The position numbers and the translations under genes are program-made. Source: a virus. From it: a stretch of 64,000 bases of DNA. Positions within the stretch are counted from its first letter, which is position 1; the number at the start of each line of letters is the position of its first letter. Below are positions 5,130-54,947 of this stretch, piece by piece. A model generated the notes under the pieces. That model did not search any database. It was not told the DNA's origin and was given only the letters and a program-made list of their open reading frames with translations. The stretch lies in the IMG/VR virus record IMGVR_UViG_3300022231_000029. One strand, written 5' to 3'.

Positions 5130-5360
5130 CTATTCGTGTTCGTAATAGCGTTGTATGGCCCTTGTGGCAATCTGACGAAGATTATCTTTTGCTTTCGGAG
5201 TAATGCTGGACATAGCAAGAGCGCCTTCAATAAAGCGTTCAGGATTGACGTTCACTTCGATTCCCTGGATACCGTCAGATCCTTCCTCACGAGACTTGAG
5301 ATAAAGGTAGCTCGCAGAAAATCCAAAAGCGAGTAAACCTATGATCGTGGTCTTCTTCAT
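5130..5360 (-). CDS. small membrane protein
   Basis: N-terminal hydrophobic helix IIGLLAFGFSASYLYL. Confidence 0.7.
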   Translation of the reverse strand: MKKTTIIGLLAFGFSASYLYLKSREEGSDGIQGIEVNVNPERFIEGALAMSSITPKAKDNLRQIATRAIQRYYEHE

Positions 5361-6812: not shown

Positions 6813-7148
6813 TTACCCCACTGAATCATCCCAACTGATAACAATCGGGGTGCCATTCGGGTTATGAACGTAAACACTCTGAGGGCCATCAAGATCAATC
6901 GCTCTGTTCCCTCCGAGAGGGAATCCTTCCGTCTCGATATCCGTATCATCACCACGCTTGTAGCGAATAAGGTTTGCGAGAGTGCCATCATTATTATAAA
7001 TGGTGAGCGCAGTCCTCTCCGGAAGTTCAGGACGAAGTTCGATCGTTTCGCCAGCACCTACTTCAGTGTTATTTTCAAAGCTCACGCGAGTTGCTGGACG
7101 TGGCTTGATTCGTGAATTCGGAAAACTTGCAAGATCAACAAATGGCAT
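6813..7148 (-). CDS. small beta-rich capsid protein (penton-like single jelly roll, inferred)
   Basis: start moved to ATG 7148 (GGAGGA RBS); RTALTIYN...GFPL pattern; last of the capsid paralog cluster. Confidence 0.5.
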   Translation of the reverse strand: MPFVDLASFPNSRIKPRPATRVSFENNTEVGAGETIELRPELPERTALTIYNNDGTLANLIRYKRGDDTDIETEGFPLGGNRAIDLDGPQSVYVHNPNGTPIVISWDDSVG

Positions 7149-7149
7149 A

Positions 7150-7722
7150 TTATCCTCCGATCTTGTAGTTGTTCGCTTTGCTGATCGAGCGTAAGTATCC
7201 TTTGAAACGGACACCCATCACTTGAGGCACAATGCTTGAGTTCGTGAGATACCACTTGAGCGACTGTCCTTCCAGAATGCGAAGGTTACACTCAATCATG
7301 TTCTCGTTTGAAAGGTCTGGCCCAACACCAAGAGACATGCGGTATGGAACTTTCTGCGGATTAGCAAGATCAGTCGGTGTACCGTGATACGGAAACACGC
7401 GAATGTCATTCAGCTTTGGAATGAATTCAGTCTGGTCAGCAAACTGAGCATCAGTATAAATACCGTATGCCGTGATGATTGCTTCCCATCCTTTCGGAGG
7501 CGCGAAGTTGATGAAGAGTTCTTCTGTAGTTCCGGAAGAAGCTTCAGCGACACGTCTTACGTCGAAAGACTGCCCATTCTGAGGAATGTTGATGAAGGGA
7601 TTCGAAAGTTTCTCCCCGACCATTTCAAAAAGTTGCGAGTAATCGCCACCTTTAAAAGCGTCGAGAATTTCCTTGATCGAAAAACGTCCCTGGAGGACGT
7701 TATCGGGTCTTTGATTCTTCAT
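7150..7722 (-). CDS. single-jelly-roll capsid protein paralog
   Basis: beta-rich; PPKGWEAIITAY, ILEGQSLKWYLTN, VRFKGYLRS; AAGGAGG RBS. Confidence 0.5.
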   Translation of the reverse strand: MKNQRPDNVLQGRFSIKEILDAFKGGDYSQLFEMVGEKLSNPFINIPQNGQSFDVRRVAEASSGTTEELFINFAPPKGWEAIITAYGIYTDAQFADQTEFIPKLNDIRVFPYHGTPTDLANPQKVPYRMSLGVGPDLSNENMIECNLRILEGQSLKWYLTNSSIVPQVMGVRFKGYLRSISKANNYKIGG

Positions 7723-7732
7723 TCATTCCTCC

Positions 7733-8398
7733 TTAACCTGTTACGAGGTTAGTGAGGTCTTGCTGTCCTTCGATACGGATTCTGTAGCCTTTGAAGATCA
7801 TGAACACAACAAAGTTTCTTGCAGAGTTGTTGTTCACGAGATCAATCTGAAGCTGCTGAAGCGGCATGAACATCATCGGACGATCAGGCAGGAACGGCTG
7901 GAAAGGTGCTCCGATCTGATCGAGCGGAACATAGTTGTCCTGGTAAGCGCGAGATGAAGATCCGTCAATCAAGGCAAAGCGAAGGCCATTGGCATCACCG
8001 TTACCGCTGATGTCGCGTGGGTTAATGTATTCGATTGTTGGTGTGACAGAATCGAAGTCTACGGCGAAAACAACTTTCACCATCTCTGTCCACACGAATG
8101 CAGCTTCCTGGGTGACTTCGAAGCTGATCTGTTGTTGACCACCGTTTGCTTCGAGCACATCAGAAGTAGCACAGAAGAAGAATGGCCAGATCACGTTGTT
8201 GATCGTGAGGGCATCTCCTGATGCGAGGTTCTTCAGATACTTCGCCCCGCCCGTCGGTGCGTTCACATATTGAGAGCGAACGTCATTTGCGGCCTGAAGG
8301 CGAGTATTTCTGATTTCCATGTCACGCTTCAGTTTATTCAACTGATCAACGTCCAGGGATTGAAGATTAATTTTGTTTCCTGTTGTTTCATCGGCCAT
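7733..8398 (-). CDS. single-jelly-roll capsid protein paralog
   Basis: WPFFF...FEVTQEAAFVWT...LIDGSSSRAYQDNYVPL...FKGYRIRI; colinear with ORF 8410. Confidence 0.55.
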   Translation of the reverse strand: MADETTGNKINLQSLDVDQLNKLKRDMEIRNTRLQAANDVRSQYVNAPTGGAKYLKNLASGDALTINNVIWPFFFCATSDVLEANGGQQQISFEVTQEAAFVWTEMVKVVFAVDFDSVTPTIEYINPRDISGNGDANGLRFALIDGSSSRAYQDNYVPLDQIGAPFQPFLPDRPMMFMPLQQLQIDLVNNNSARNFVVFMIFKGYRIRIEGQQDLTNLVTG

Positions 8399-8409
8399 AA
8401 AGCCCTCCC

Positions 8410-9081
8410 TTATCCGTTATGCTTCTGGAACATAGTTTTAAGAACAACGTCTGGACGCTGAATTCTTACTCGTGCTCCGTAGAGGGTGAAGTTCTGTGTA
8501 CCAACACCTTCAGTCTCGATATTAACGCCGGTAGGAAGCCAGCATTTGAGTTCAAGCATTGCTTGTGCTGATGGGTACAGAAGATATGGAACAGGAAGGT
8601 CAAAGAAGTAACCCTTCGATGGAAACACTTGAAGAGGTACTGGTTTGTCCATGAACTGTCTTGATGATTGCATATCGCGGAGAATGAGACTCAAAGGAGC
8701 TTCAAGCCCGGCAACACCGGCATCTTCGCAATCGCGATAGATACGAGTGACAAGAAATGCTGATTCGTTTGTGACCTTGAAAGACTTCTCGGCACGGAAA
8801 TTACTATTCCATGTCGGATCTGTCCCAAGATCGAAATCCACCTCATAGAAGAATCCCCACTGAACAGCGTTGATATCGCCTACGTTCGATGGGATCAGTT
8901 CCGGTGGAAGGATGTTATTCAGGTGGCGCTCAAGAGCGTTCTGTTTAACAGATGGTTGATCAAAGAGAGTGTTCGCACCTTTCTCCGCTTTCTGGAGACG
9001 GCGCTCTACGGAACGATTTTCTTTGATAGATGAATCGAGTGAGAGGATGTCAGCAATGAGTTGCTGTTTTTGATCTGCCAT
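8410..9081 (-). CDS. single-jelly-roll capsid protein paralog
   Basis: WGFFY...FKVTNESAFLVT...LRDMQSSRQFMDKPVPL...LYGARVRI; start moved to ATG 9081. Confidence 0.55.
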   Translation of the reverse strand: MADQKQQLIADILSLDSSIKENRSVERRLQKAEKGANTLFDQPSVKQNALERHLNNILPPELIPSNVGDINAVQWGFFYEVDFDLGTDPTWNSNFRAEKSFKVTNESAFLVTRIYRDCEDAGVAGLEAPLSLILRDMQSSRQFMDKPVPLQVFPSKGYFFDLPVPYLLYPSAQAMLELKCWLPTGVNIETEGVGTQNFTLYGARVRIQRPDVVLKTMFQKHNG

Positions 9082-9143
9082 AAAATTCCCTTTCTTCAAA
9101 GCTCTCACTTTTTCCAAAGCGGGCTTTATTCAAAGAGGTTGAT

Positions 9144-9183: not shown

Positions 9184-9783
9184 TTACTGAACCGGACGAC
9201 GGAGAAGACCCTTGAGCTGCGCAACGAAGCGGAGCGGATAGTTCGCACTCGGAGTCATAGCAGTGATCTGGCCAGAAGAAGCGCCTTCTACTTTCCAGAG
9301 CATGTAGAACTGAGTGAGAGGGCCGATATCAAGAGCCTGGTTCCCTTGGAACATAACAGGGTTGATATTCGCATCACCGTACTGAACGTAAGAATCAACT
9401 GTATCAGTGTCACCAGCGAGGGCAACCTGATGGCGGATTTTCGCGTTCACGAGGCGAAGCGGAGATTCCCAGTATTGCTTCTCAGCGAGCCAGAGCTGAA
9501 CGAACGAGTAGTTCGCGTAAAGAGCGAGAGCTTCGCGCTTAGCTGGATCGTTAGAAGAAGCATCAACCTGGATGCCCATGATACGGAAAGACTTGTTACG
9601 CTCAAGCTGTCCGTTACCACGGAGGTTTGAGAGAACAAGCGACTTACCTTGTGAGTTAGAGAAGAACTGACGCTCTTCCGTAACAACAGACGCGCTTGTG
9701 ATTTCAAGCGTGTCGTAAAGTGGTTGTTTGATCTGGTCACGAAGGGCAACACCGCCAACTTCGTTCAACTGTGTAGAAGCCAT
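9184..9783 (-). CDS. major capsid protein, single-jelly-roll type (inferred)
   Basis: QPLYDT motif, beta-strand pattern, terminal LKGLLRRPVQ; own promoter, AAGGAGG RBS and terminator. Confidence 0.6.
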   Translation of the reverse strand: MASTQLNEVGGVALRDQIKQPLYDTLEITSASVVTEERQFFSNSQGKSLVLSNLRGNGQLERNKSFRIMGIQVDASSNDPAKREALALYANYSFVQLWLAEKQYWESPLRLVNAKIRHQVALAGDTDTVDSYVQYGDANINPVMFQGNQALDIGPLTQFYMLWKVEGASSGQITAMTPSANYPLRFVAQLKGLLRRPVQ

Positions 9784-9928: not shown

Positions 9929-11686
9929 TTAGAAATCAGCTTCTTCTTCACCATCATCATAGCTCACCTCGAAAGCAGAACCGAGGGAATCAGGATTTCT
10001 CGGAGCTGTCGGGATAGGGCCAGCGGAATCGAAGTCAGCATCTTGCATGTACGATCCAGACATCGGAGTAGTGATGTACCCGCCGAAGTCAGCATCAGTG
10101 ATTCCTTCCGGAGCACCGAAGTCAGACGAGTGGTAAGCACCCATCTGTGGAACAGCGATGATACCGCTCATCTGTGGAACCGCGATGATTCCCGAGAGAG
10201 CAGTCTGAGAACCGGCCATCTGAGCTGCTGCGAGGTAGAGTGATGTACCGAGGTTCACCACTGAAGCACCGATCACACCTTTAGCAATCGCCTTCGCTCT
10301 CTTATTACCTACGAAGTGATGAGCAGCACCAGCGATAGCGAGTGGAAGAATCGCATCGAAGTTCTTAGAAAGGAATGCGCCGAGAACCGGGATCTTAGCA
10401 ACAGATGTTTTCACTGTTGGGAAGAATTTTGTCATGGCATGTTTGATACCTTGAATAGCAGCACCACCAGCGAGGAGCCCACCGGCTTCCGCAAGTTCAT
10501 GACCAAGGTAATCCTGTGTGAAATCTTCGATTTTCTTCATAGCTCCTCCGAAAGATGGATTTGATTTAACTTTATGTTTTTTCGATTTATAAGAACGCTT
10601 CTTCTTAGAAGCTTTCTTAGATACAGACGGATGCGAAGAAGAAGCTTTCACTTTTCTGCGCTTCGAAGACTTTCTCTTCTTCGATTTTTTCTTTGTCGGT
10701 TTCTCTTCAGCGGCCATCATAGCAGCGGCCTTCTTAGAAACTTTGCGACGGTCGCCCCCGTTAGAAGATTTTTTCTTCGAGCCTTTACGCTTAGAAGATT
10801 TACGAGCTTTCTTTTTAGAAGCTTTTTTCTTCTTACGCTTAGGATTCTCACCAACGATCACCGATGGGTTAGATGCGATGATAGGGTTTGACTTCTTCTT
10901 GTGCGAACGACGCTTAGAAGCTTTCGCCCCTTTACGCTTATGAGTACGTCTCTTCGAAGAAGACTTACGAGCTTTACGCTTGATAGACTTTTTCGGAGTT
11001 ACTTTTTTCGCGGATTTTTTTCTCTTGTGGGTTTTCATCTTTTTAGATGACTTCACCTTTCTCGTCTTCTTGGCCACTTTCGCCGCCTTTTTCTTACGTT
11101 TTTTCTCGCCAGGAAGTTTGACGGATTTTACTTTTTTCGCTGAAGAGTTGAGCTTCTTGTAAAGTGCTTTGAGTTTCTTCTCAGCGCGCTTAACATCAGA
11201 TGCTTCTTTCTTCATCTCTCTGCGAGCTTCAGCTTCAGACATATCAAGGGAACGAACGTACCCTTTGTCTTTCATCTTCGCTTCTTCTTTCTTAAGCTTT
11301 TCAATGCGCCCACGAATTGTTTTCGTGAGATGCTCTTTCACCTTCTGAGCGGCCTTGAGTTTCTTCTCAACACCCTGGACGTTCTTTGCTTTCGAAAGAT
11401 CGTTCACAGCTTTGTTGAGTGTGCTGAAAGCTTTATCGGTTTCTTTCTGAGTGAAAACTTTCACCTTACCGATAACGATGGATGGGCCCTTGTTAGGGAT
11501 CTGTTTTTTAGCTCCGACCGGAAGACCTTTTGCGAGTCTTTCTTCGAGGGTCATCAGTCTTGAGCCACCTCCCTGCTTGCGATACACAGCAGAGGTAGGG
11601 TTCTTTTTGCGTTTTCTGAGAGAGCGCATAGGTTTCTCCTTCCTTTTTTTGCGAGACGGATTATTGTAAAAAATCTGTAAGTCCAT
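9929..11686 (-). CDS. Lys/Arg-rich putative genome-condensing core protein precursor with membrane segment and acidic tail
   Basis: H1/protamine-like KKxSK tracts, seven NP motifs, hydrophobic helices, SGIIAVPQM repeat, DADFG motifs. Confidence 0.7.
   Translation of the reverse strand: MDLQIFYNNPSRKKRKEKPMRSLRKRKKNPTSAVYRKQGGGSRLMTLEERLAKGLPVGAKKQIPNKGPSIVIGKVKVFTQKETDKAFSTLNKAVNDLSKAKNVQGVEKKLKAAQKVKEHLTKTIRGRIEKLKKEEAKMKDKGYVRSLDMSEAEARREMKKEASDVKRAEKKLKALYKKLNSSAKKVKSVKLPGEKKRKKKAAKVAKKTRKVKSSKKMKTHKRKKSAKKVTPKKSIKRKARKSSSKRRTHKRKGAKASKRRSHKKKSNPIIASNPSVIVGENPKRKKKKASKKKARKSSKRKGSKKKSSNGGDRRKVSKKAAAMMAAEEKPTKKKSKKRKSSKRRKVKASSSHPSVSKKASKKKRSYKSKKHKVKSNPSFGGAMKKIEDFTQDYLGHELAEAGGLLAGGAAIQGIKHAMTKFFPTVKTSVAKIPVLGAFLSKNFDAILPLAIAGAAHHFVGNKRAKAIAKGVIGASVVNLGTSLYLAAAQMAGSQTALSGIIAVPQMSGIIAVPQMGAYHSSDFGAPEGITDADFGGYITTPMSGSYMQDADFDSAGPIPTAPRNPDSLGSAFEVSYDDGEEEADF
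10142..10195 (-). repeat. 27-bp in-frame tandem repeat (SGIIAVPQM x2)
   Basis: CATCTGTGGAAC(A/C)GCGATGAT(A/T)CC unit duplicated. Confidence 0.85.
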
Positions 11687-11702
11687 TACTTCCCCTCCAA
11701 AA

Positions 11703-12095
11703 TTAACCGATGATACCTTTCAGATTGCGTATGGCGGCGAGATCCGAGTTCTCGTCGATTTCAAGGAGCCTCGAATCATTATACGCAACATTCGGATTTA
11801 CTAAAATAAGAAAAGGTGAATCCTTCAAGTGGTAGAGAACTGTAGGGCCCGAAAACTTATGATCCCACAACACCTCAAGGTCTTCCTGATCTCTGGAGTT
11901 CACGCGAATATATGTGATGTTCGGCACGAAACCAATCAGGTCAACTTTGTTTGACCGGAGAAGCTTTTCGTATTTCACACCCTCTGGAGAAGATTTTCCT
12001 TTCTTGAAGATCCGGACAGCTTTCAGAACGGCCTCAAGAACTATCGATCTTTGCTTGCCACTTCCCCACATAAGAATGTTTGCCCACTTCATCAT
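11703..12095 (-). CDS. small virion-module protein
   Basis: ORF within late operon; ends GIIG. Confidence 0.7.
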   Translation of the reverse strand: MMKWANILMWGSGKQRSIVLEAVLKAVRIFKKGKSSPEGVKYEKLLRSNKVDLIGFVPNITYIRVNSRDQEDLEVLWDHKFSGPTVLYHLKDSPFLILVNPNVAYNDSRLLEIDENSDLAAIRNLKGIIG

Positions 12096-12098
12096 GGA

Positions 12099-12776
12099 TT
12101 ACTTCCCGAGCCCAACGGCCTTCAACGCCTTCTCATTGATTCTCTCACCAATGAGACCACGATTTTTATACGCGAGATATCCAACACCGATGGCAGCAAC
12201 ACCCAACACCAGTGGAAGATTTCCCGCCACAAATGAAATGATCTTTGCGCCACCGGATACCGTGTTTGAAACAACGGATGCGGTAGTCTGAACAACAGAG
12301 TTAACGGTCTTCGCCGTATCCTTGGCCACCAGCTTCGTAGCATCCCAATATGTCCACTTGACATTAGTAGGGTTGATGAAGGCAGACGCAATCGACTTCC
12401 TCGAAGGAAGCATATTTTTATTCGAAGAGAAAGACTTCAAAAGAGAAGCTTTCACCTTGTCAGCAATCGAAGAGTTCGTGAGATAAGAAAAACCAACATC
12501 CCGAAGAAAGTCTTGGTAGTCCTCATCTGAGATCGTAGACGTATAAGCAGCATCAAGCTTCAGAGCATCCACAAACTGAGCATACGTAGCAGAAGGCTTC
12601 AGATCATTATAAAGACTTTGAATCCAGTTCTGACCCGCGACCAGCTCCTGAGCCGGAGTAAATGTTTTCGAAGATGATGAAAACCAATCAAGAGGATTCA
12701 GTGAGAATCCCATCGTTCCGAAGTCACTATTTGTGACAGGAGCGCCGACACCACCAAAATCCATTTTCTTTGTCAT
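12099..12776 (-). CDS. tail-anchored virion membrane protein with DFG leader
   Basis: MDFGG and SDFGTMG motifs; C-terminal TM LPLVLGVAAIGVGYLAY. Confidence 0.75.
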   Translation of the reverse strand: MTKKMDFGGVGAPVTNSDFGTMGFSLNPLDWFSSSSKTFTPAQELVAGQNWIQSLYNDLKPSATYAQFVDALKLDAAYTSTISDEDYQDFLRDVGFSYLTNSSIADKVKASLLKSFSSNKNMLPSRKSIASAFINPTNVKWTYWDATKLVAKDTAKTVNSVVQTTASVVSNTVSGGAKIISFVAGNLPLVLGVAAIGVGYLAYKNRGLIGERINEKALKAVGLGK

Positions 12777-12817
12777 GAGATAATCCTTTAGCTCAAACGA
12801 TTTCTATTGTATCACCC

Positions 12818-14962
12818 TTAGTCATCGGTTGCAACGTAGGCAAGCCCAGCGATCACAGCAGCGAGCCCGACCAGCACTCCAGCACCGGCACCCTTCTTCT
12901 GTCCAAAATTCAGGTTAATTTGATCAATCATTCCATCCGTAGGAGGAAAGTCCGGATAATATCCAGGGTAACGATCGTAAAGAAATGGAATCAGTGATGG
13001 CCCAAACTTCTGGATAAGGTCATCCCAATTCGTCTTCGCAACCGCATCAGCAATGTTTCCTGGAGTTCTTCCCGCCTCATCAAGAACATTCTCCACCGCC
13101 TGGCCAGTCTCTCGAACAACATTGTCAGCGATCTCAGAAACATTCTCCGGTGTTCGCTGAATCTCATCAGCAACATTATCAACCGCCCTCACTGTCTCAC
13201 GTCCGACATTCGTTGCGACCTCCGCAGCGTTGTCCTGAGTGCGTACAGCTTCATCCACGACGTTAGAGGCACCACGCGCCGACTCGCGAGCAATGTTCGT
13301 CGCAATCTGGGCAATGTTCTCCGGAGTTCTCGCCGTCTCAGAAGCAATCGCCTTGGCAAGCTTGGCAAGGTTTTCAGGTGAACGTCCAATTTCATCCAGG
13401 ACGTTCGATCCGATATTGGCAAAGTTTCCTGGAGCGCGTCTCATCTCATCAAGAAAGTTCTGCCCCATGTTCGCGAGAAAATTTGTATCCGATGATCCAG
13501 GAACAATCGAAATCTTTGACATGGCATTTGCCACTTGCTGAGCAATCTTTGCCCAATCAGTGTTATAAAGATCGGCCAGGTGAGCGTAAGTAATCGGAAG
13601 ACCTGTCTCTTTCTTCACAAGATAATCGACATAGTTCTGAAACTCTTTATCATGAATATCACTCATGGCATCCATGAGCGTTTTATCAGATCCCGGAACC
13701 TGAGAGAGCGTAGTTCCTGCCGACATGATGAGCTTTGCGGTAAAGGCACTATCAACCCATCCCTGCTTTACAGCTTCTTTCACTGTCTCAGATTTTGCTT
13801 CCCGAATCGCGGCCTGTTTTGAAACATCCTTGGCAAGATCCGTTGTCGCTGATTCAGCAAACTTTTCCATGCTTCCATAATTAAGTGATGAAGCATAAAG
13901 AACACCAGCAGAAAGCGCCGTTCTTCCGAGAACAGTTCCATTGAGCCCCGTCTCGTCACCGATATAATTTACCGCCATACCTTTAGCAATGTTCGATATG
14001 GCCGCACTGATAGTTCCGGCCGAAACAACAGTGAGATAAATCTTAAGTCCATCAATGATCCTGGATTTCCAATCAATCTGACGATCATGGTAAATATCAT
14101 CCGGAAGCGCCATGAGATTTTGACCGGACGTAATGAGTCCTCCAGAATATTTATCAAGGGTCATAATGAATGGCCCTAGAATCGCATCCTTCTTTAAAGT
14201 GTTGATGACAGCATTATCAAACTTCCCCACTTCCTTGTATGGAATAAGGGCGATCTGGCCATAGGCCTTCATGCCTTCGAGAATTTCTTTATCAGTAAGC
14301 TTTCCCTGAAATGTCTTATCCGGAATATCCATCACCTCTTCAAGCTTCTCGCGAATTGATGCCGGAAGAATAGGCATGACAGTGACATCGACAACAACAT
14401 TGATCGGACGCCACACAACTTCATTCACAACATTGCGAGCAATCCGGAACGCAGGACGAGCGACATTCTTATATGTGTACTCAACAGCGTTCGATGTCTC
14501 TTTTACAATGTTATGAGCGATCTCACCCGCCGTCTGAGTAATCTTTGAAATCGTTGGGCCAGGCTTTGTGACAACATTCTCTAAAGTAAGGATTCCGTCA
14601 GAGACAAAGTTTCTGATATCCGGAGGAAGAACACTCAAGGCAACATTTTTCGCCGCCGAATAAACATCCTCAGTGAAAGATCCGACTCCCTTCACAACCT
14701 TAAGAGCAGGCTCAGCAATCTTCGCCACTTCTTTAGCGACCTGGGAAACAAATTTCCCAAGCGATCGAAAGGCCTTACTCACGGCCTTCTTAATACTCTT
14801 AAACCATCCACCCATCTGCTGAGAACCATCATCGACAACTTCATAGTCACTATGAAGATGATAAACGTGCATGTATCGCTTCATGGCAGTCTTCTCAGGC
14901 ATTCTGCCGAGACCATCATAAAATTTGATCTTTGAATTTCTGCTTTTAGGAACAATGATCAT
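12818..14962 (-). CDS. large amphipathic-repeat virion membrane protein (714 aa; DNA delivery/scaffold candidate)
   Basis: QMGG followed by WFKSIKKAVSKAF amphipathic helix; 11/22-aa helical repeats; C-terminal TM. Confidence 0.7.
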   Translation of the reverse strand: MIIVPKSRNSKIKFYDGLGRMPEKTAMKRYMHVYHLHSDYEVVDDGSQQMGGWFKSIKKAVSKAFRSLGKFVSQVAKEVAKIAEPALKVVKGVGSFTEDVYSAAKNVALSVLPPDIRNFVSDGILTLENVVTKPGPTISKITQTAGEIAHNIVKETSNAVEYTYKNVARPAFRIARNVVNEVVWRPINVVVDVTVMPILPASIREKLEEVMDIPDKTFQGKLTDKEILEGMKAYGQIALIPYKEVGKFDNAVINTLKKDAILGPFIMTLDKYSGGLITSGQNLMALPDDIYHDRQIDWKSRIIDGLKIYLTVVSAGTISAAISNIAKGMAVNYIGDETGLNGTVLGRTALSAGVLYASSLNYGSMEKFAESATTDLAKDVSKQAAIREAKSETVKEAVKQGWVDSAFTAKLIMSAGTTLSQVPGSDKTLMDAMSDIHDKEFQNYVDYLVKKETGLPITYAHLADLYNTDWAKIAQQVANAMSKISIVPGSSDTNFLANMGQNFLDEMRRAPGNFANIGSNVLDEIGRSPENLAKLAKAIASETARTPENIAQIATNIARESARGASNVVDEAVRTQDNAAEVATNVGRETVRAVDNVADEIQRTPENVSEIADNVVRETGQAVENVLDEAGRTPGNIADAVAKTNWDDLIQKFGPSLIPFLYDRYPGYYPDFPPTDGMIDQINLNFGQKKGAGAGVLVGLAAVIAGLAYVATDD

Positions 14963-14965
14963 GAT

Positions 14966-17137
14966 TTAAACCTTGATGTTGAAAAGTTCCAGGAGGGCGT
15001 TAGTGAATGCAATCTCAGAAACCTTGTCAGCGACAAGTGCCGTAGCGATGTTCTGCTCCATGAGAGTAACTTTTGCCAGGAGTGTTTCCACAGCAACTTT
15101 TACATCCGGTCTCAAGTACCAGTTCGGATTCTCATTCACCCATTTTTGAAGAGCATCGGAAGGAAGGCCTCCCTCCATCGTAGCTCGCTGAAGAAGATAT
15201 TCGTAAGTAGGAGTAGGAATTTTTTCAAGCTCAGTATCAGCGATTGTTTTGAGTTCGTTCTTCGCGATGAATTCCGCATCAGACATGAGAACACTATTGG
15301 CCATAATGACTTCAGCGTTCACCTGATCCTGATAAACTTTATTCTGAGCGCGGATAGCTTCGTTCTGAGCAAAGATCCCGGCACTGGACTGAGCATTCTT
15401 CTTGAAGTCTTCAACCAGCGCCATTTCAAGTGCTGTGAATGCTCTCCAATATTCGTAGCCATTCTCGTAATAGAAAATACCCGTCTTCATTTTTCTTTCA
15501 AATTCAGCGAGTGCTGCTGGCCCTGAAATAATCGCCTGGCCCTGAAGGTATCGCTGGTATGCTTGATTGAAAGCGTAGTCGTTCTTATCTTTGTATGATT
15601 TCAGGAAAGCATCAATCTCCGTCATGGCCTTTCCCCAGGCCACAACTGATTCAAGCTGAAGTTCAGCAAGATACTCATACGCACCGATAGGCCCCTGAGA
15701 AACCGGATGAAGAAAAGGGAATTCCGATCCGTCATCATCTTTAGAGAACCAGCGAGTTTCATCCACGTAAGGAGAAGTGCTGATGACGACTCTGCGGGAG
15801 TAGATGATCTTACTTCCGATGTCGGAGCGAAGAGCGGCCACTGATTCCTGGAGATAGATGAGATTTTCCAGAAGATCAATGATGGAGTCCGGGAACTGAA
15901 TGAACTGAAGCTCATAGAGGCTTGTGGCATCAGAATACAGAAGACCATTTCTTACGCGCAGATCTCCGAAAGCGATTGCATTTGGATAATAAGGAGGGAA
16001 AGAAAACTGCGCCACGTTCTTGTCGTAGAAATCTTTCTTTCGAAGATTAAAAAGATTCGACCCATCGTAAGCAGAAAGAGAGTAATATGTTTTCCCGCTC
16101 ACGACGTATGGATAGTTCTTCCACGGGTAGGTGTAACTCTTCCCATTCGGAAGTGCGACCGTTCTCAGTTGATACCACTGATAGTATCCTTCAAGAGTTT
16201 TACTAATGGCCTGAGAATATGTTCTTCCAGAAGAGTCAGCAAGAGTAATGGATGCTGGAGCAGTTCCGGAGTAATTGAGATAATAGTTTGGTTCAAAGCA
16301 TGAGACAGCAGTGGTCTTCACATCGTTAACGATCTTGGCAGAAGCGAAGAGTTCCTTCGATTCATTTGATTCGACCTTGGCATTGATGACAAAAGCCCCT
16401 ACATAACCCAGAATCGCTTCACAGCGAATGATTTCAGGGACAGTATCAACCTGGAGATCCACGCGATAAACGTAAGCGAGCATCGGTGTAAGACTTTCAA
16501 CACCTGTGTACTTCATTTTGTCTGAAAGCATTGGCACAGTTTGATAATTCACCGGAACAGAAAATTCCTTCCCGATGGATGTCTCATAATCAGTGGCGAG
16601 GAGCTGTGGGCGCTTAGGAGTTACGAATGGTGTATTGAAGCCGTTCGTTTGAGTAGGGAGGACATTGATGATACAGTACCCCACCGAGTCTGGGCCTGCG
16701 CTGGGATACTTTGATGGATTTCTTGTGATATAAGAAACCCAATTCTTATTTTCAATCTCATCGAAAACAACTTTCAGAGCATCTTGCTGAATGCTGTTTT
16801 GCCAGTTGAAGGCAAGAGAATTTCTTTTGCAATACGCCCAGAGTTCTTCGGCCGCGGTGATATACCATGATGCCGGAAGATCGAAGACTTCAACAATTCT
16901 GTCGTAGCTTGTGACTTTGCCCGCAGTAGAGAAAACGGGATTGAGAAGAGAAAAGAGTTTCAACTTCTTCAGCTTAATCATCGCTTCGGCGGTGAGGTCG
17001 ATGTTTCCATAAAACATGGCGCTGAAGCGAACGTCATCAATCTCTTTTAAAATACGAACCCGGTGCCAATCAGCTACATGCTGAGCAACACCGAGTTCTT
17101 GAATCTTTGATTGATTGAGGTCAAAAGGAACGAGCAT
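14966..17137 (-). CDS. large virion protein of unknown function (723 aa)
   Basis: long ORF in late operon, Tyr/Pro-rich beta core and helical C-terminus. Confidence 0.75.
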   Translation of the reverse strand: MLVPFDLNQSKIQELGVAQHVADWHRVRILKEIDDVRFSAMFYGNIDLTAEAMIKLKKLKLFSLLNPVFSTAGKVTSYDRIVEVFDLPASWYITAAEELWAYCKRNSLAFNWQNSIQQDALKVVFDEIENKNWVSYITRNPSKYPSAGPDSVGYCIINVLPTQTNGFNTPFVTPKRPQLLATDYETSIGKEFSVPVNYQTVPMLSDKMKYTGVESLTPMLAYVYRVDLQVDTVPEIIRCEAILGYVGAFVINAKVESNESKELFASAKIVNDVKTTAVSCFEPNYYLNYSGTAPASITLADSSGRTYSQAISKTLEGYYQWYQLRTVALPNGKSYTYPWKNYPYVVSGKTYYSLSAYDGSNLFNLRKKDFYDKNVAQFSFPPYYPNAIAFGDLRVRNGLLYSDATSLYELQFIQFPDSIIDLLENLIYLQESVAALRSDIGSKIIYSRRVVISTSPYVDETRWFSKDDDGSEFPFLHPVSQGPIGAYEYLAELQLESVVAWGKAMTEIDAFLKSYKDKNDYAFNQAYQRYLQGQAIISGPAALAEFERKMKTGIFYYENGYEYWRAFTALEMALVEDFKKNAQSSAGIFAQNEAIRAQNKVYQDQVNAEVIMANSVLMSDAEFIAKNELKTIADTELEKIPTPTYEYLLQRATMEGGLPSDALQKWVNENPNWYLRPDVKVAVETLLAKVTLMEQNIATALVADKVSEIAFTNALLELFNIKV

Positions 17138-17154
17138 GAGAAGTGCTCCTGAAG

Positions 17155-17562
17155 TTAGTAGTCATCACCACGTTTCAGGAAAAAGAATACACCAAGAGCA
17201 AGTGCGCCGCCAATAGCGAGTTTCTTTTTGCCAGAAACAGCAGTAGTGGAGCTTGTTGCTTTCGCCACATCATCTGATGTCACAGGAGCGGAAGAAACGG
17301 TTTGCGTAGAGCTTGCTGTCGTCGCATCTTTTTGCATCATGAGAGTTTCAGAGAGAGCTTGCTTCTGATCATCATCAAGGTCATGCACCGATACCGGATC
17401 TTGTGAGTAAAATTCCATATCATCGGAATACTCCATTCCCATTCCGCCAAGAGGAGCACCGGGCTCCATCATTCCAGGCTCGCGATTGGCAATCCGGTAT
17501 TTCGTAAGTTCTTTCAGCTTGTCAGTGGGCGCTTGAAAGTCGCCCATGGTATATTTTCTCAT
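17155..17562 (-). CDS. tail-anchored virion membrane protein
   Basis: MGDF and LGGMG motifs; C-terminal TM LAIGGALALGVFFFL. Confidence 0.75.
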   Translation of the reverse strand: MRKYTMGDFQAPTDKLKELTKYRIANREPGMMEPGAPLGGMGMEYSDDMEFYSQDPVSVHDLDDDQKQALSETLMMQKDATTASSTQTVSSAPVTSDDVAKATSSTTAVSGKKKLAIGGALALGVFFFLKRGDDY

Positions 17563-17572
17563 TCAGAACTCC

Positions 17573-17989
17573 TTATTTTTTGATTACCTTGTAGATAACT
17601 GCCAGAGCAAGGAGTCCTCCGAGGACAGACGCGCCGATGATGATAGGGCCCTGATACTGAGTCCAGAATGATGGCCCTGTCGCCACGTAGCCAGCAGGAA
17701 GAACACCGGTAGGAAGAGTTCCTGTGGCCTGATATTGTGCTGCCTGCTCCGGAGTGAGTGTCACTTGAGATGTTTTTCCGTCTGCACCAGCGATATTGAG
17801 AACGAATTTCTCAACGGCCTTTGTAACAGCTTTCGTTGCTGACTTCTGAGCAGAGTCAACAGTCTTACTCACAAGATCAGACCAGAAATCACCCATGCCA
17901 CCAAAGTCACTTGAAACAACATTCGTGCCAATGCCCGCCATTGTGTATTTTTTCACAAGCGAGGGTTTTACCAATCTTGGTGATTTCAT
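17573..17989 (-). CDS. tail-anchored virion membrane protein
   Basis: SDFGGMGDFW motif; C-terminal TM followed by basic residues. Confidence 0.75.
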   Translation of the reverse strand: MKSPRLVKPSLVKKYTMAGIGTNVVSSDFGGMGDFWSDLVSKTVDSAQKSATKAVTKAVEKFVLNIAGADGKTSQVTLTPEQAAQYQATGTLPTGVLPAGYVATGPSFWTQYQGPIIIGASVLGGLLALAVIYKVIKK

Positions 17990-18436
17990 TTAGACCTTCT
18001 TTTTAAATGTGTTGAAAAGCCCAAGCGCCGTGAGAATTGTCAGTCCTGCTGCAACCGGGATAATGACGATTTTGTACTTAGAAAAAATTTCTGCTACTGA
18101 TGCCATAACAGTATCAGTGACTGCCTTCTGAGCATTCGGATCAGTACCAAGCTTCGATCCAACAACATTCGTGAGAGCAGTCGTAGCACCAGACTGAAGA
18201 GTTGTCTTTACTGTCTCAGCACCTTTGTCACCAAAGATAGCGGAGAAGATATCGTTGGCAGACGTTCCCATGCCCGATGTTCCTGGAGTATAAAAATCAC
18301 CAGACGTATAGGAGATCCCGCCAAAGTCAGCATCACCCATCCCTTTTTTCTTCACTGGAAAATAAGGCATAGGCTTTGGCATTGGTCTTGGCATACCTCT
18401 TGGAACTGCACCGAAATCACCTGAGTTACATTTCAT
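17990..18436 (-). CDS. tail-anchored virion membrane protein
   Basis: SGDFGA, GMGDADFGG, SGMG motifs; C-terminal TM. Confidence 0.75.
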   Translation of the reverse strand: MKCNSGDFGAVPRGMPRPMPKPMPYFPVKKKGMGDADFGGISYTSGDFYTPGTSGMGTSANDIFSAIFGDKGAETVKTTLQSGATTALTNVVGSKLGTDPNAQKAVTDTVMASVAEIFSKYKIVIIPVAAGLTILTALGLFNTFKKKV

Positions 18437-18448
18437 ATTTTGTCTCCT

Positions 18449-19042
18449 TTAGACTGCGAATTCTTGGCCAGAAGCTGACTTCATTTCAAACCCGATGGGA
18501 CGATCCTTGACGATAGCATCCAGGACAAGACGTTTCACCGGGCCCGGATTCATTGTATCAGTAATGTTGCGTTCATAGACGACAACATAGATGTGATTGA
18601 AAGATTGAGACTTATCGGAGTATCGAACACAACAAAAGACCGGCCGGATGCCAATACTCATGAGAAGAGTCGCGATGAGAAGAGACATGTCATCACAGTC
18701 ACCCATGGCATACCCAACATCGGCCATCATCTTGATCATCATATCCGGAGTCTGAAGCGACTCCGTGCCGACAGGATCTTTTACATAACGAATGTTTTTT
18801 TGAACAAATGTACCAATCGCTCTTGCCTCATCAAGATAGTGATGAGAAGGAATTTTTTCGTAGTTCAGGATATTGGTAGCAAGACGCTTAACGAGAGCAC
18901 TTTGAGAATACTCCTGAGCAAGCTTTTTCATGACAGCGACAGTATCAAGGTTGCCCTTGATACCGTCACCGACTTTACTTATTGTTTGATCAGGAAGTTT
19001 ACCGAGATTCTGGAGAGGTCGCTTTCTGGGAAAGATAATCAT
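18449..19042 (-). CDS. transglutaminase-like cysteine protease (putative maturation protease)
   Basis: catalytic triad pattern GDCDD...FNHIYV...VLDA; IRYVKDP motif. Confidence 0.85.
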   Translation of the reverse strand: MIIFPRKRPLQNLGKLPDQTISKVGDGIKGNLDTVAVMKKLAQEYSQSALVKRLATNILNYEKIPSHHYLDEARAIGTFVQKNIRYVKDPVGTESLQTPDMMIKMMADVGYAMGDCDDMSLLIATLLMSIGIRPVFCCVRYSDKSQSFNHIYVVVYERNITDTMNPGPVKRLVLDAIVKDRPIGFEMKSASGQEFAV

Positions 19043-20849
19043 GGTAGTCCTTCAGGTAGTTTCGGAGCTCCGGAACATCTGGAAGGCTGTACTGTCTGAA
19101 TGCGATGTCGTAGATTTCGTCCACGGTCAACACAGTCAGAGCAGATTTCAGATCAATCCCTGTCGCACTGAAGGCATTGATCGTTGCATCACCAAGATTC
19201 CCGGAAGTGAATTGATTCTGAAGAGCATGAGCGATCAATGGAACACATGTATCGACCACTTTTTTCTTCAGCTCAAGGTCATTCCCGATTTTACCAGTTT
19301 CCGGACTTGACGCAACCGAAGTTTGAGTAGTTGTCTTCTTAGCTCCGGTCTTCACACCAGAAGCAGCGGGTTTCGGAGTCGCAACAACTTGTTTTGCCGG
19401 AGTTGCTGGTGTGACGGTTGATTTCGATTCAACTGGTCTTGCTGGTGCCGGACGCACAGTTGTCGGATTCGCCGACTGCGCTGGTCGTGGAGTTTCTTTG
19501 CGGTATGAAGGCTGCGCCGGAGCTGCCGGAAGTGCCTGACGTGCTGGTTGCGGTGTCGGTGGAGCGAAATGTTGAGCGGCACCACCGCCTCCCTGGCCAG
19601 CAGCGAACATAAGTGGCGCGATTTTGCCGAGATTATCCAGGACAGATTCGACAACACCACGAGGACGTTGCTCACCAGCGCCTTCATCAGCAAGTTCTTT
19701 CGCCATAGTTTGAAGCTTCAGACCAAAATCAAGTCCATCCTGGCGAGTCTTGTTGAGCATTTCAAACATTTTCACAGCATCGAACTCATTATCGTTCTTT
19801 TTGTTACTCATCTCATGGAGCTGTTGACGGAAATCTCTCGCCTGTTCTTGAGTCATGGTCGTGATCTTTTCAAGCATCCGATCGGTATCACGTCTCATAT
19901 CTTGCATCATCGTGGCGAAGTTCTTATTAGACTCCATGATGAGAGTCATTGTTTGCTGACTCTGTTGTTGCATCATCTGAAGAATTCCGTTCATTCCGCC
20001 ATCGTTTTTAGGAGCAAGTGCGGCCTGAAGGACGGTAGCGAGAACATTCATGTTACCTTTTTCAGCTTCTTTCATAAGTTCTCTCTCTTCCTTTCTTCTT
20101 TCGCGATCTTGTTCTTCACGGATACGATTTTCTTCCATGAGACGTTCGATCATGAGATTTGTTGATTCTTGTGTTTGCTGTGACATAGTTGAGAAGGTTG
20201 AAAACATCTTCTCAAAGCGAACATCTTCTTGTTGTTGCTTTTGCTGCTCGACTTTTGCCACTTCTTCCGGTCTTGGTGCTGAAGGTGCAGCAACAGACAT
20301 GGATTGCTGCTTAAGAAATGTTCCTTTGATGTCGTCACGAAGAACAATCTGATAATGTCCTTCGCCGTGATCTTTCTGAAGCTTTTCTTCGGAGTATGGT
20401 GTGCGAATAGTGGCCACAAAGTGCCCATTCTTCTTGATTTGGAATCGAATAGGGACTCCGGCCTTAATTTTCTCATCAGCAAACGAGAAAATATCCTTCT
20501 GGCGCGGAGAATAGGTAAGATCAGATGTATCTTCCTCTTCTTCCTCCTCTTCTTCCTCATCGAATCCGAAGCCGCCTACGGATTCTTCCTCTTCGTCGTC
20601 TTCGCCGCCAAAAGCGCCGAAAACTGCACCAGATTCTTCATCTTCATCGAGTTCAAGATCCTCGGAAGGGTCATAATCCGGATTTAATGACGTTTCCTGG
20701 GCCACTTTCGCAGCAACTCGCGTGGAAACCTTGCGAGCTTCCTTTTCTACGGTCTTCTTCACCGCTTTTTTTGCCGCACGGGCCGCAATTTGCGCGATCT
20801 GCTCGTTCTTTTTTGACTTCGACCGCTCTGACACTGCCGTTCTTCCCAT
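18999..20849 (-). CDS. large low-complexity late protein (basic, acidic, coiled-coil and Pro-rich blocks)
   Basis: first ORF of late operon; AGGAGG RBS. Confidence 0.8.
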   Translation of the reverse strand: MGRTAVSERSKSKKNEQIAQIAARAAKKAVKKTVEKEARKVSTRVAAKVAQETSLNPDYDPSEDLELDEDEESGAVFGAFGGEDDEEEESVGGFGFDEEEEEEEEEDTSDLTYSPRQKDIFSFADEKIKAGVPIRFQIKKNGHFVATIRTPYSEEKLQKDHGEGHYQIVLRDDIKGTFLKQQSMSVAAPSAPRPEEVAKVEQQKQQQEDVRFEKMFSTFSTMSQQTQESTNLMIERLMEENRIREEQDRERRKEERELMKEAEKGNMNVLATVLQAALAPKNDGGMNGILQMMQQQSQQTMTLIMESNKNFATMMQDMRRDTDRMLEKITTMTQEQARDFRQQLHEMSNKKNDNEFDAVKMFEMLNKTRQDGLDFGLKLQTMAKELADEGAGEQRPRGVVESVLDNLGKIAPLMFAAGQGGGGAAQHFAPPTPQPARQALPAAPAQPSYRKETPRPAQSANPTTVRPAPARPVESKSTVTPATPAKQVVATPKPAASGVKTGAKKTTTQTSVASSPETGKIGNDLELKKKVVDTCVPLIAHALQNQFTSGNLGDATINAFSATGIDLKSALTVLTVDEIYDIAFRQYSLPDVPELRNYLKDYHDYLSQKATSPESR

Positions 20850-21274: not shown

Positions 21275-21538
21275 TTACTGAGCTGCGGGTGGCGCTGTAA
21301 CAGCGGCCATAATGCGATCGACTTCTTTCTGGCCTACGTGATTGATGAGAAGAAGATCACCGTGGGATCTCGCTCCGGCAAATGTGCTGATTGAGCCTTC
21401 AGCATCTGCAACAGCGATTACGTACCCAGCAGACTTCGACTCTTCAAGTACGGCCTTCAATTTGTCTACGATCTGAACCGACTTCACCACTTCTGGTGCT
21501 TTCGCTGCAGGCGAAGACTTGTCTTTTTTCTTTGCCAT
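21275..21538 (-). CDS. hypothetical protein (87 aa)
   Basis: GGAGG RBS, terminator downstream. Confidence 0.75.
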   Translation of the reverse strand: MAKKKDKSSPAAKAPEVVKSVQIVDKLKAVLEESKSAGYVIAVADAEGSISTFAGARSHGDLLLINHVGQKEVDRIMAAVTAPPAAQ

Positions 21539-21547
21539 AAATCCTCC

Positions 21548-21964
21548 TTAAAGATTGGCGATATTGCCTTTCGTATCGACCTTGATAATTGAGAAATTCG
21601 AGAGAAGCTTTACTTGCAAAGACATGAACTCGATAGCGCCCATGTTGAGAAAGAAAAAGTTCTTATCTGCACAGTCTATCCGAGTCTTGCCGTTTTCGCA
21701 TTCAGAAAACTTCAAAACTGAGAGAGCAGAAATAGTGTGATAGATGATGGACTCTTTGCCGCCGATCATGACGGGTTCTTCAATGATGTAAACGCCGCAT
21801 TTAATATCGACAGGGACAAAGCTCTGGGTCTTTTCGCCAGAGAGCCCCACTGTAGGAACATTTTCCCATTTGACCTGTGGATCACGTTTACCAGGATCTT
21901 TAAAGGTCAAGAGTTGCTGAAGAAAAACCTTACCCGTCTTATCGACATTCATCCGGATATACAT
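21548..21964 (-). CDS. hypothetical protein (138 aa)
   Basis: AAGGAG RBS. Confidence 0.7.
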   Translation of the reverse strand: MYIRMNVDKTGKVFLQQLLTFKDPGKRDPQVKWENVPTVGLSGEKTQSFVPVDIKCGVYIIEEPVMIGGKESIIYHTISALSVLKFSECENGKTRIDCADKNFFFLNMGAIEFMSLQVKLLSNFSIIKVDTKGNIANL

Positions 21965-22036
21965 ATCTACTCCTTTTTCTATTCCCTCCAGATCGTATCT
22001 ATCAGGGTTTCAGGTTGACAAGAATAATTTAGCAAT

Positions 22037-22064
22037 TTGCCACAAGGAGAGGACGTGATAACAT
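22037..22064 (+). promoter_or_regulatory. promoter of spike/fibre operon
   Basis: TTGCCA-16 nt-TAACAT with TGn extension. Confidence 0.45.
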
Positions 22065-22103
22065 TTTGACAGCTATTCATTTTGAACCAAAGGACGGTCA
22101 TAT

Positions 22104-22583
22104 ATGGGTTTTTCCGAAAGAATTGGTGCCACAGGTGACTCGCTCCGGATCAAGAACAATGAATGGTATATCGCGAGAAGCTTCAATCAGCAGACGGACA
22201 TCAAGGTTTTCCGGGTAAATGAATCAGATGAAATCGAGTTCTTTTCTGTTCCTGGCATTGCTGGAGATAAATTTGTTCTCATGTCTCAGTTCGAAGAACT
22301 TGAGGAAAGAGTTGCGATTCTCGAAGCAATCGTTGAATCGATAACCGCCGGGAATATCAACATTGTGCCATTCACTCTGTCTCCGGTTGAGATTTCTGCG
22401 AAATCTGTTACACTACCTCAAGCTCCCCTTCCCGGCACTGCTCTTATCATGCCAGCCTCAGGTATCCCACAGCTTCAGAATGTTAATTTCCAGGTAACAG
22501 GCACAACTGTAAGCTGGAGTGGGTATGAATTAGAAAACCAGTTTGCTGACGGCGACAAAATCAAAATCATTTATATGTTCTAA
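22104..22583 (+). CDS. short spike protein (shared N-anchor, coiled coil, shared C-domain)
   Basis: LRIKNNEWYIARS...DEIEF aligns with N-terminus of ORF 22687; C-terminal GDKIKIIY. Confidence 0.65.
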   Translation: MGFSERIGATGDSLRIKNNEWYIARSFNQQTDIKVFRVNESDEIEFFSVPGIAGDKFVLMSQFEELEERVAILEAIVESITAGNINIVPFTLSPVEISAKSVTLPQAPLPGTALIMPASGIPQLQNVNFQVTGTTVSWSGYELENQFADGDKIKIIYMF

Positions 22584-22686
22584 GGTCTTCCGGGTATAAT
22601 AGACGCATGACAAAGATCACTCTCATGATGGGGTGATCTTGAAATTTTTCTTCTCACTGTCCTATGTCATTCCAAAGGAGGGAATA

Positions 22687-24585: not shown

Positions 24586-24593
24586 GTCTTCGA

Positions 24594-24622
24594 GGGGAGG
24601 AGGAGACTCCTCCCCTTTTTTT
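24594..24622 (+). terminator. intrinsic terminator
   Basis: GGGGAGGA/TCCTCCCC stem then T7. Confidence 0.85.
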
Positions 24623-24653
24623 GCCTTTTTGACTTTATGTTAGGAGGTTCTTC

Positions 24654-54503: not shown

Positions 54504-54947
54504 ATGAAAGCGACCATGGGCCATTTCGGAGAAGCAACCGACCCTTCTACCCTTTCCCCGAACATCGTCTCTGCTGCTACCAACCTGGCCGATCAATCTA
54601 TTGATCGTTCCCTGGCCCAGGCAGAGTCTCTTTTGAAGTCTCAGGAAGTTCAGGCCTTCATTGAACAGAATGGACTTGCTCCTTATATCCAGGATCTCAC
54701 CAAAGAACGTGTGAAAACATTCCTGGCGCTCTTTGGCTTGTGGTCTGTGTATAAGTTCATCAAGTCACCCATCGGGCTCGCTTGCGTAGGCGGTGCCGCT
54801 CTTTACGTCATGACCGGCAATAAAGATAAGGTCGTCGCTAAAGTCGCTGATAAAGTCGGTACGGCCACAGTAAACGCCAATATTGCGTCTACCGCTACCA
54901 CCATCACGTCAACAGGGGAGTCGTCCAGTGAAGTCAGTAAAGCTTGA
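54504..54947 (+). CDS. membrane protein with MGHFG leader
   Basis: MKATMGHFGE; two hydrophobic helices. Confidence 0.7.
   Translation: MKATMGHFGEATDPSTLSPNIVSAATNLADQSIDRSLAQAESLLKSQEVQAFIEQNGLAPYIQDLTKERVKTFLALFGLWSVYKFIKSPIGLACVGGAALYVMTGNKDKVVAKVADKVGTATVNANIASTATTITSTGESSSEVSKA

Follow-up and report, generated by a model that had tools for sequence, protein, structure and literature searches.

A selected Asp-Phe-Gly peptide motif on late membrane and core proteins of an undescribed tailless-type phage: a candidate docking tag next to a transglutaminase-fold enzyme

What is the role of a short peptide that recurs at the ends of several late proteins of one virus, next to the gene for a transglutaminase-fold enzyme? 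The question is raised by positions 9,929 to 19,042 of a 64,000-nucleotide stretch of viral DNA (IMG/VR record IMGVR_UViG_3300022231_000029); the whole stretch is termed here the window and is part of the 72.8-kb contig of an undescribed phage. An earlier note on this DNA had listed strings with Asp-Phe-Gly (DFG) in late proteins, together with (M/L)G(G) motifs and a Cys-His-Asp enzyme, and had proposed either an adenovirus-like proteolytic maturation or a shared packaging tag. All of the quoted DFG strings were found in the open reading frames (ORFs) given for them. The DFG motif is genuine, with selection acting on the peptide, and the packaging tag proved to be the better-supported half of the earlier interpretation, on account of the conserved modules around the motif, its tandem repeats and a protein end in ...DF. 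We therefore read DFG, tentatively and with a rough probability of 0.42, as a shared short linear recognition motif for docking or virion incorporation.

A total of eight copies of [DH]FG[GASTQ] were found in the 114 ORFs (19,954 amino acids, aa) of the window against 1.2-1.4 expected, and none of 2000 shuffles reached eight. Seven of the eight copies lie in four short terminal segments; when only these segments were shuffled with their composition kept, 0.07 copies were expected and none of 20,000 shuffles reached seven. Over the whole proteome, bare DFG exceeds expectation only about 3-fold (11 copies against 3.4) and MGG is not enriched in the window proteome (three copies), so the signal is one of context, position and conservation. 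The codons for D, F and G vary synonymously from copy to copy, which indicates selection on the peptide and excludes a DNA-level repeat. Other candidate explanations were also set aside: there is no lipobox after the MKC start and its Cys varies among paralogues, the enzyme for N-myristoylation does not exist in bacteria, and calcium loops of the RTX or EF-hand kind would need another spacing.

The peptide is shared by several late proteins as had been claimed, and those that carry it are membrane or core proteins. In the window it was found only in proteins with membrane or hydrophobic helices, one of them encoded 36 kb away, and the membrane proteins of the early region have no DFG tag. The late operon is long and occupies about 5.1-20.8 kb of the minus strand. 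Within it, the 148-aa membrane protein at 17990..18436 (minus strand; C-terminal membrane helix at aa 123-141) has NSGDFGAV at aa 7, GDADFGGI at aa 37 and TSGDFYTP at aa 47; it begins with MKCNSGDFGA, followed by the module ADFGGISYTSGDFYTPGTSGMG and then by the helix NDIFSAIFG. The adjoining 138-aa protein at 17573..17989 (minus strand), which also ends in a membrane helix, has VSSDFGGMGDFWSD at aa 28-35 within the module MAGIGTNVVSSDFGGMG, followed by the amphipathic helix DFWSDLVSK. A weaker, variant tag was observed in the 135-aa protein at 17155..17562 (minus strand; C-terminal hydrophobic helix), which begins with MRKYTMGDFQ and has TMGDFQAP at aa 8. The 225-aa protein at 12099..12776 (minus strand; C-terminal membrane helix) has KKMDFGGV at aa 6 and TNSDFGTM at aa 18, and its two-DFG leader MDFGGVGAPVTNSDFGTMG runs into FSLNPLDWFSS. 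The Lys/Arg-rich core-like protein (585 aa; 9929..11686, minus strand), which has hydrophobic helices, carries the motif in its C-terminal tail (nucleotides (nt) 9932-10201) as HSSDFGAP (aa 522), TDADFGGY (aa 533) and QDADFDSA (aa 551), and ends in EEEADF. The distant carrier is a 147-aa membrane protein at 54504..54947 (plus strand) in the neighbourhood of a GH108 lysin; it starts with MKATMGHFGE, an HFG variant of the tag. None of the DFG-bearing proteins has any match in Pfam or PHROGs, and the late proteins as a whole have no curated family match in either collection except for a weak match to Transglut_core.

A search with a 723-aa late protein returned 13 relatives, from which six syntenic loci were taken (L001-L007), and a search with the enzyme returned 170 homologues on contigs of up to 81 kb, from which four more distant loci were taken (L008-L011). 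A scan of species genomes added further copies in metagenome-assembled bins (L012-L014), while IMG/VR scans with the 723-aa protein and with the enzyme found no relatives. The gene order was observed to be kept throughout: an acidic coiled-coil protein of 465-625 aa is followed by the enzyme, a series of small proteins that have membrane helices at their C-termini, large proteins, a conserved protein of about 130 aa, the Lys/Arg-rich core-like protein, a capsid protein of about 200 aa ending in LLRRPVQ, and jelly-roll paralogues. A protein-primed polymerase was found in all four of the distant loci whose flank reaches the replication genes.

The motif is conserved in the orthologues of the six syntenic loci and also in relatives with enzyme identity as low as 44-50%. 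Pooled over the 12 loci, the density of DFG per 1000 aa is 16.7 in the C-terminal tails of the core proteins, 6.4 in the first 60 aa of the proteins with C-terminal membrane helices and 0.27 elsewhere. The flanking leaders vary in length and sequence while the motif stays. The 17990 family begins with MKCNSGDFGA in the window, MKCSGDFGS in L001 and MKCMGDFGA in L005, and its 22-residue module ADFGG[IV]SYT[ST]GDFxTPGTSG[LM]G is conserved in L002 and L004. For the 17573 family, with the module [ML][AC]G[IV]G..V...DFG[GS](A)MG, the alignment of five orthologues (A3) has G19, G21, D28, F29 and G30 invariant despite unequal leaders. Orthologues of the variant-tagged 17155 protein start with MKVINDFQG (L001) and MKIDCDFED (L005). 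Twelve of the 15 sequences of the 12099 family (alignment A2) have [DH]FG and one more has the variant GDF-GF, whereas two orthologues with a short leader lack the motif; the leader length varies and G23 before LDWF is invariant. L002 and L004 have four to five coiled-coil membrane proteins that are paralogues and all begin with MK[CRT]YMGHFG[QS]. In this paralogue expansion (L002 4047-7804; L004 997-3496) a C-terminal membrane helix was seen in some members and not in others.

The last 120 aa of the core protein contain one to three DFG copies in all ten loci that include the gene, for example SADFGS, ADYGG and ADFGG in L009, three ADFGE in L010 and two GADFG in L011, while the tail in L012 has three tandem QDFGS together with QDFGH, NFGS and ADFSG. 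A free end of the form ...[DE]xDF closes the tail throughout the window's clade, in six of six loci. As a separate observation, the same tails hold tandem M[SN]G[IV][ID] repeats (MSGIIAVPQ twice in the window, M[NA]GVDYTP in L009, MSGVDLT/MNGVDLT in L010) and, in L001-L012 and the window, a PRNP element.

In the docking reading the tag would have the core [AS]-D-F-G-[GAS], with an MK-x-x-MGHFG variant, often embedded in G-[IV]-G-A-x-V-V-x-x-DFG-G-M-G or in the 22-residue module given above, and it would mark proteins bound for the virion membrane and the core layer. It would be displayed on the exposed N-termini of the small proteins with C-terminal membrane helices and, in the basic core protein, on the disordered tail at the C-terminus. 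One common viral partner would read it during assembly, most likely the jelly-roll capsid with its inner face, or a scaffold. Such reading would sort the tagged proteins and tether them to the growing shell, with the tandem copies in the core tail giving multivalent binding. The enzyme encoded upstream would be a putatively active, virion-associated, LapG-like cysteine peptidase, whose coupling to the tag is possible and not required. The conserved modules around the motif span 15-22 residues, more than a protease would require, the motif repeats two to five times in the tails and it forms the free ...DF terminus in the window's clade; these features suit a docking peptide better than a minimal scissile site.

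Both kinds of display have parallels. The acidic C-terminal tails of E. coli SSB (...DDDIPF) and T7 gp2.5 end in Phe and plug into a pocket of their partners. The basic core protein likewise has an acidic disordered tail with Phe as the last residue, but the two known proteins have a replication role and a single motif without repeats, and they share no homology with the core protein. A structural precedent for the docking of a short, aromatic peptide at the N-terminus of a membrane protein may be seen in vaccinia virus, where residues 1-16 of A17 (Y3/Y6/Y7) dock into the F-ring of D13 at the base of the jelly-roll capsomer (PMC13672803). The analogy has its limits, as vaccinia is a eukaryotic virus with a double jelly-roll scaffold, only one protein rather than a whole set is tagged, and the peptide is Tyr-based instead of Asp-Phe-Gly.

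The window has four jelly-roll paralogues (ORFs 9184, 8410, 7733 and 7150). One of them is a single jelly-roll capsid protein of 199 aa encoded at 9184..9783 on the minus strand (65 representatives at E<=1e-3; AlphaFold2 (AF2) model with a predicted local distance difference test score (pLDDT) of 84). Its best fold matches are viral capsid jelly rolls, namely SPV1 (Z 8.0), HHIV-2 (Z 7.0) and P23-77 VP17 (Z 6.3), and its neighbours include capsid proteins of internal-membrane viruses. The model agrees with a jelly-roll major capsid protein as in phages of the P23-77 and Salisaeta icosahedral phage 1 (hereafter SSIP-1) type; the Z values are middling, so that the fold is supported and not the family. 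The virus of the tagged proteins has both jelly-roll capsid proteins and a protein-primed family-B polymerase (58987-61284; PF03175, E 1e-56). A lipid membrane probably lies under the capsid, by analogy with SSIP-1 and from the presence of at least five late proteins with C-terminal membrane helices.

Several points weigh against docking. We infer the binding and its partner, as we do the docking role itself, the internal membrane and the activity of the enzyme. In a positive-inside analysis Lys and Arg were found mainly after the membrane helix, and the tags could thus face either side. The 12099-family orthologues without the motif indicate that it is not essential on every carrier. Finally, a cleaved leader would fit the Gly-rich context of the motif, the (M/L)G(G) junction that precedes a conserved amphipathic helix, a paralogue in L009 (16466) that starts directly at this helix (MWDTITSLFG), and the adjoining LapG-like enzyme.

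The (M/L)G(G) junction follows directly after the tag region and is itself followed by an aromatic and acidic amphipathic helix (DFWSDL, DIWDDI, LDWFSS, DIFSAIFG). Of the earlier claim on these motifs, their presence holds and they are positionally conserved before the helix in three protein families, but they are not statistically enriched in the window alone. A related junction was found in the 714-aa membrane protein at 12818..14962 (minus strand), which has no DFG and a C-terminal membrane helix from aa 693; a conserved N-terminal domain is followed by QQMGG and a basic amphipathic helix, and its orthologues have SSMDG-FRIKI, GTMG-FKLRI and ESMGWG-FKIKI at this position. L011 has QMGG-IFDDLL. 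The combination of (M/L)G and helix outlasts DFG, as L008 has NMG-SLTDNLLDL and SEMG-WSFKDDF and no DFG.

The enzyme is encoded at 18449..19042 (minus strand, 197 aa; GDCDD...NHIYVVVY...LDAI), directly upstream of the tagged genes as in every locus. It starts with MIIFPRKRPLQNLG and has no signal peptide, membrane helix, cell-wall-binding repeats or peptidoglycan (PG)-binding domain. The window copy matches Transglut_core (PF01841) at E 0.0064; at 17.2 bits it stays below the curated cut-off of 23. Of the 38 family members, 31 match the profile at E<=0.1 (best 8.4e-8). C116, H150 and D175 are invariant in the 38 homologues, as are D115, D117 and D118, at a mean column identity of 44%. In the AF2 model (pLDDT 88) the enzyme belongs to the transglutaminase-like fold with its papain-like core, the Cys at the start of a helix and the His and Asp on the strands after it: the matches are the putative protease 3kd4 (Z 12.0), the animal transglutaminases TG3, FXIII and TG2 (Z 10-11 over 160-170 residues), LapG (Z about 9), PNGase (Z 9) and PeiP (Z 8.6), and also PeiW and the putative protease 3isr. 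The Cys-His-Asp transglutaminase-like enzyme that had been recognised in the operon, with a fold unrelated to adenain, is therefore upheld. A search of the PDB with the enzyme profile gave a weak DRC7-type transglutaminase-like domain as its sole match. Among ORFs of at least 190 aa no other protease family was found except a C92 amidase, and none matched C5, C57 or Ulp1. As the enzyme family also occurs where DFG is absent, in L008 and in SSIP-1, enzyme and tag are separable. A complex prediction of the enzyme with residues 1-50 of the 12099 family, made with no controls, gave no verdict (score 0.00) and weighs neither way.

An overlap of 38-59 nt joins the start of the enzyme gene to the 3' end of the 465-625-aa gene upstream of it, and the enzyme gene is in the +1 frame in every case (window 18999-19042; L001 8114-8166; L009 10001-10053; L010 10001-10059; L011 10001-10044; L012 10001-10038; L013 10043-10083), and the overlap persists in relatives down to 44% identity. 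From the sequence, it could be plain translational coupling or the site of a frameshifted fusion product. In the window the overlap is of 44 nt with an acidic, coiled-coil, Gln-rich protein of 616 aa (18999..20849, minus strand), which has no family match and has FG-rich acidic stretches.

The only cultured relative of the enzyme is gp34 of SSIP-1, with 32.6% identity (E 2e-14), the only tblastn match among 50,697 phage records and also the best viral structural match (BFVD I1ZBG7, E 2.5e-11). SSIP-1 has no tail and contains an internal membrane (PMC6356626); in its GenBank record gp34 is annotated as a structural protein. Unlike the enzyme of the window, gp34 possesses a membrane helix at its C-terminus. 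The product of the second gene downstream, gp36, resembles the 17573 family in having a 17-aa leader, GMGDIWD and a C-terminal membrane helix. The seven residues of GMGDIWD are identical to those of the L001 protein of the 17573 type, a score reached by one of 500 shuffles; an hhalign comparison of alignment A3 with gp36 was not significant, so the likeness rests on this identity, the architecture and the gene position. The GH108 lysin gp31 is also common to SSIP-1 and the window (E 5e-20). The two phages differ in other respects: SSIP-1 has a circular 43.8-kb genome, no protein-primed polymerase and no DFG motif, and hhalign found no significant match between the 199-aa capsid family and gp45 or gp46. 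The genes gp34-gp35-gp36 (SSIP-1 21296-23201) look like a module of enzyme and membrane protein common to two internal-membrane phages that are otherwise unrelated. An older module may consist of the enzyme and the MG-helix membrane protein, and the DFG tag is specific to the present group.

The main alternative to docking, and a serious one, is the proteolytic maturation of the earlier note, namely that the DFG leaders and the core tail are propeptides, cut in the assembling particle by the LapG-like enzyme at [FML]-G-[GAS] or (M/L)G. Cleavage would expose the amphipathic helices and mature the core, in convergence with adenovirus AVP/pVI or poxvirus I7/A17. The comparison with LapG bears directly on this. 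LapG and DvhG have acidic calcium-site residues on both sides of the catalytic Cys (D316 and E318 around C317 in DvhG) and cut between the alanines of [T/A/P]AAG near the N-terminus of an adhesin (PMC13090378). These proteins (BTLCP, Peptidase_C93) share the fold and the Cys-His-Asp triad with the window enzyme, and the D-C-E of DvhG resembles the invariant D-C-D-D, this being a match of sequence pattern only. They act as sequence-specific endoproteases on a surface protein, cutting its N-terminal part between small residues that adjoin Gly; the LapG site is preceded by a targeting helix. LapG is, however, periplasmic and regulated by cyclic di-GMP through LapD, whereas the window enzyme has no signal peptide, and only two of the 38 family members touch the Peptidase_C93 profile (PF06035, E 0.022).

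Cleavage is further favoured by the invariant triad, the putative proteases among the fold neighbours and the constant place of the enzyme gene upstream of the tagged genes. The invariant Gly precedes the conserved helix although leader lengths vary, the (M/L)G-helix stays with the enzyme where DFG is lost (L008 and gp36 of SSIP-1), the L009 paralogue begins at the helix, the SSIP-1 homologue is a structural protein and the window already has other peptidoglycan enzymes. On the other side, some tags lie at residues 3-9, where cleavage would remove almost nothing, and a scissile site needs neither long modules nor tandem repeats nor a terminal ...DF. The enzyme is also found without DFG, and PeiW and PeiP, which alone among phage transglutaminase-fold enzymes have a known function, act on the cell wall. 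Adenovirus protease (adenain) is a packaged cysteine protease that cuts the core precursors and the membrane-lytic one, among them pVI, pVII and pX, at Gly-rich sites of the form (M/L/I)xGG|x or (M/L/I)xGx|G, which leaves an amphipathic helix exposed. The likeness to it lies in the concept of maturation at Gly sites and in the Lys/Arg-rich core protein of the same operon, but adenain has a clan CE fold, to which the transglutaminase-like enzyme does not conform, and the adenovirus consensus is matched only loosely, (M/L/I)xGG fitting only QMGG in the 714-aa protein. On balance we hold the propeptide explanation to be possible yet doubtful.

A further alternative places the enzyme in entry or exit, as a virion-borne peptidoglycan peptidase comparable to PRD1 P7 or to PeiW and PeiP. 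The small amphipathic-helix membrane proteins would then be an apparatus for genome delivery or membrane remodelling, and DFG, unrelated to the enzyme, would be either a docking tag or a Phe-Gly sticker that associates with itself and co-condenses the late proteins. In PRD1-type phages the delivery genes consist of a lytic enzyme followed by genes for small membrane proteins, an order that the window recalls. The fold matches to PeiW and PeiP point the same way, as do the structural, membrane-helix-bearing gp34 of SSIP-1 with its GMGDIWD membrane protein two genes downstream and the FG-rich acidic stretches of the 616-aa upstream protein. PeiW and PeiP are virus-encoded and share the transglutaminase fold and the Cys-His-Asp triad, but these proteins of methanogen viruses have N-terminal pseudomurein-binding repeats and act in lysis on an archaeal cell wall, whereas the window enzyme is a bare catalytic domain, with no cell-wall-binding domain, signal peptide or membrane helix, in a morphogenetic operon rather than a lysis cassette. 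The window moreover has a GH108 muramidase, a C92 amidase and two PG-binding proteins already. A role in assembly is suggested by how well the enzyme is conserved (45-80% identity) and by the translational overlap between it and a morphogenetic protein. We consider an entry or exit role unlikely.

Docking and cleavage may also follow one another. A large, uncultured lineage of bacterial tailless viruses would then have a morphogenesis like that of eukaryotic viruses: the DFG leader would first dock the whole set of virion membrane proteins to the jelly-roll shell, along with the histone-like core protein, after which the packaged protease would remove the leaders, and cleavage at the Gly junction would release the amphipathic helices and the core. 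In vaccinia virus the cysteine protease I7 later removes the A17 peptide at an Ala-Gly site. The present system would be convergent with AVP/pVI and with I7/A17/D13 through an unrelated protease fold, as the fold of I7 differs from that of the window enzyme. Taken jointly, the two steps make a quite unlikely combination.

The weakest explanation, a compositional accident in which functionless DFG arises by chance in Gly/Asp/Ser-rich low-complexity termini, agrees with the modest enrichment of bare DFG and with the Gly-rich segments but is highly improbable in view of the local-composition shuffles, the positional conservation in orthologues and distant relatives and the variation at synonymous sites.

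The locus bears on an open question in the membrane-phage field, namely how viral proteins are sorted into a virus-specific membrane patch. To our knowledge no membrane phage, including PRD1, PM2, Bam35, P23-77 and SSIP-1, marks its virion membrane proteins with a common peptide, and we know of no membrane-containing phage with a demonstrated maturation protease. The loci described here represent a new, widespread and undescribed group of 40-80 kb tailless-type phages, as seen from the 170 enzyme homologues and the contigs of up to 81 kb. They offer a conserved, mutable motif on five to eight proteins per genome and a single conserved enzyme with a clear active site, and the cultured relative SSIP-1 offers the enzyme together with the GMGDIW element, so that the questions of sorting and maturation are directly testable.

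Other genes of the window complete the picture of the phage. A GH108 lysin with a PG_binding_3 domain and a membrane helix is encoded at 53288-53983 on the plus strand and opens a probable lysis cassette (53288-54947, plus strand), which continues with a 117-aa ORF, a 62-aa membrane ORF and the MGHFG-tagged membrane protein. The Peptidase_C92 amidase (26499-27092) lies in the fibre cluster, the fibre-like proteins being encoded at 22633-26110, and a PG_binding_1 membrane protein is encoded at 5357-5845. The lysins suggest a bacterial host. The metagenomic bins of L012, L013 and L014 are assigned to Cardiobacteriales, Pseudomonadota and Planctomycetaceae; such labels hint weakly at hosts and may reflect artefacts of the binning. 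The window also encodes a PAPS reductase (1382-2281), GroES (42214-42570; Cpn10, E 3e-33) and a DnaJ-domain protein (31556-32149) that scores below the Pfam cut-off, and no tRNA genes were found in it.

Two further features of protein ends were observed. The enzyme (18983-19042) and the 714-aa protein (14888-14962) have a common N-terminal pattern, MII[FV]P[RK]... followed by [ND]-x-LG-x-[LM]-P-[DE], as in MIIFPRKRPLQNLGKLPD and MIIVPKSRNSKIKFYDGLGRMPE. It is kept in L001, L002, L004, L005, L007 and many enzyme homologues, with MPI[LF]..P...LGN.P in its place in the distant clades, and judged by sequence it may be a second incorporation motif. The other feature concerns the capsid module, which includes a strongly conserved 130-aa protein (11703..12095, minus strand) that is syntenic in all loci, always between the 12099-type protein and the core protein, and for which Pfam, PHROG and Atlas gave no lead. 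This protein ends in ...GIIG, and Gly C-termini were found in several proteins of the module (6813-9117, 11703-12095), as ...YKIGG, ...NLVTG, ...QKHNG and ...KGIIG, with ...NSVG in relatives and ...TVVG, ...RFGG and ...GATG in distant ones. In the window, four of 18 late ORFs end in Gly against five of 96 others (Fisher p 0.03).

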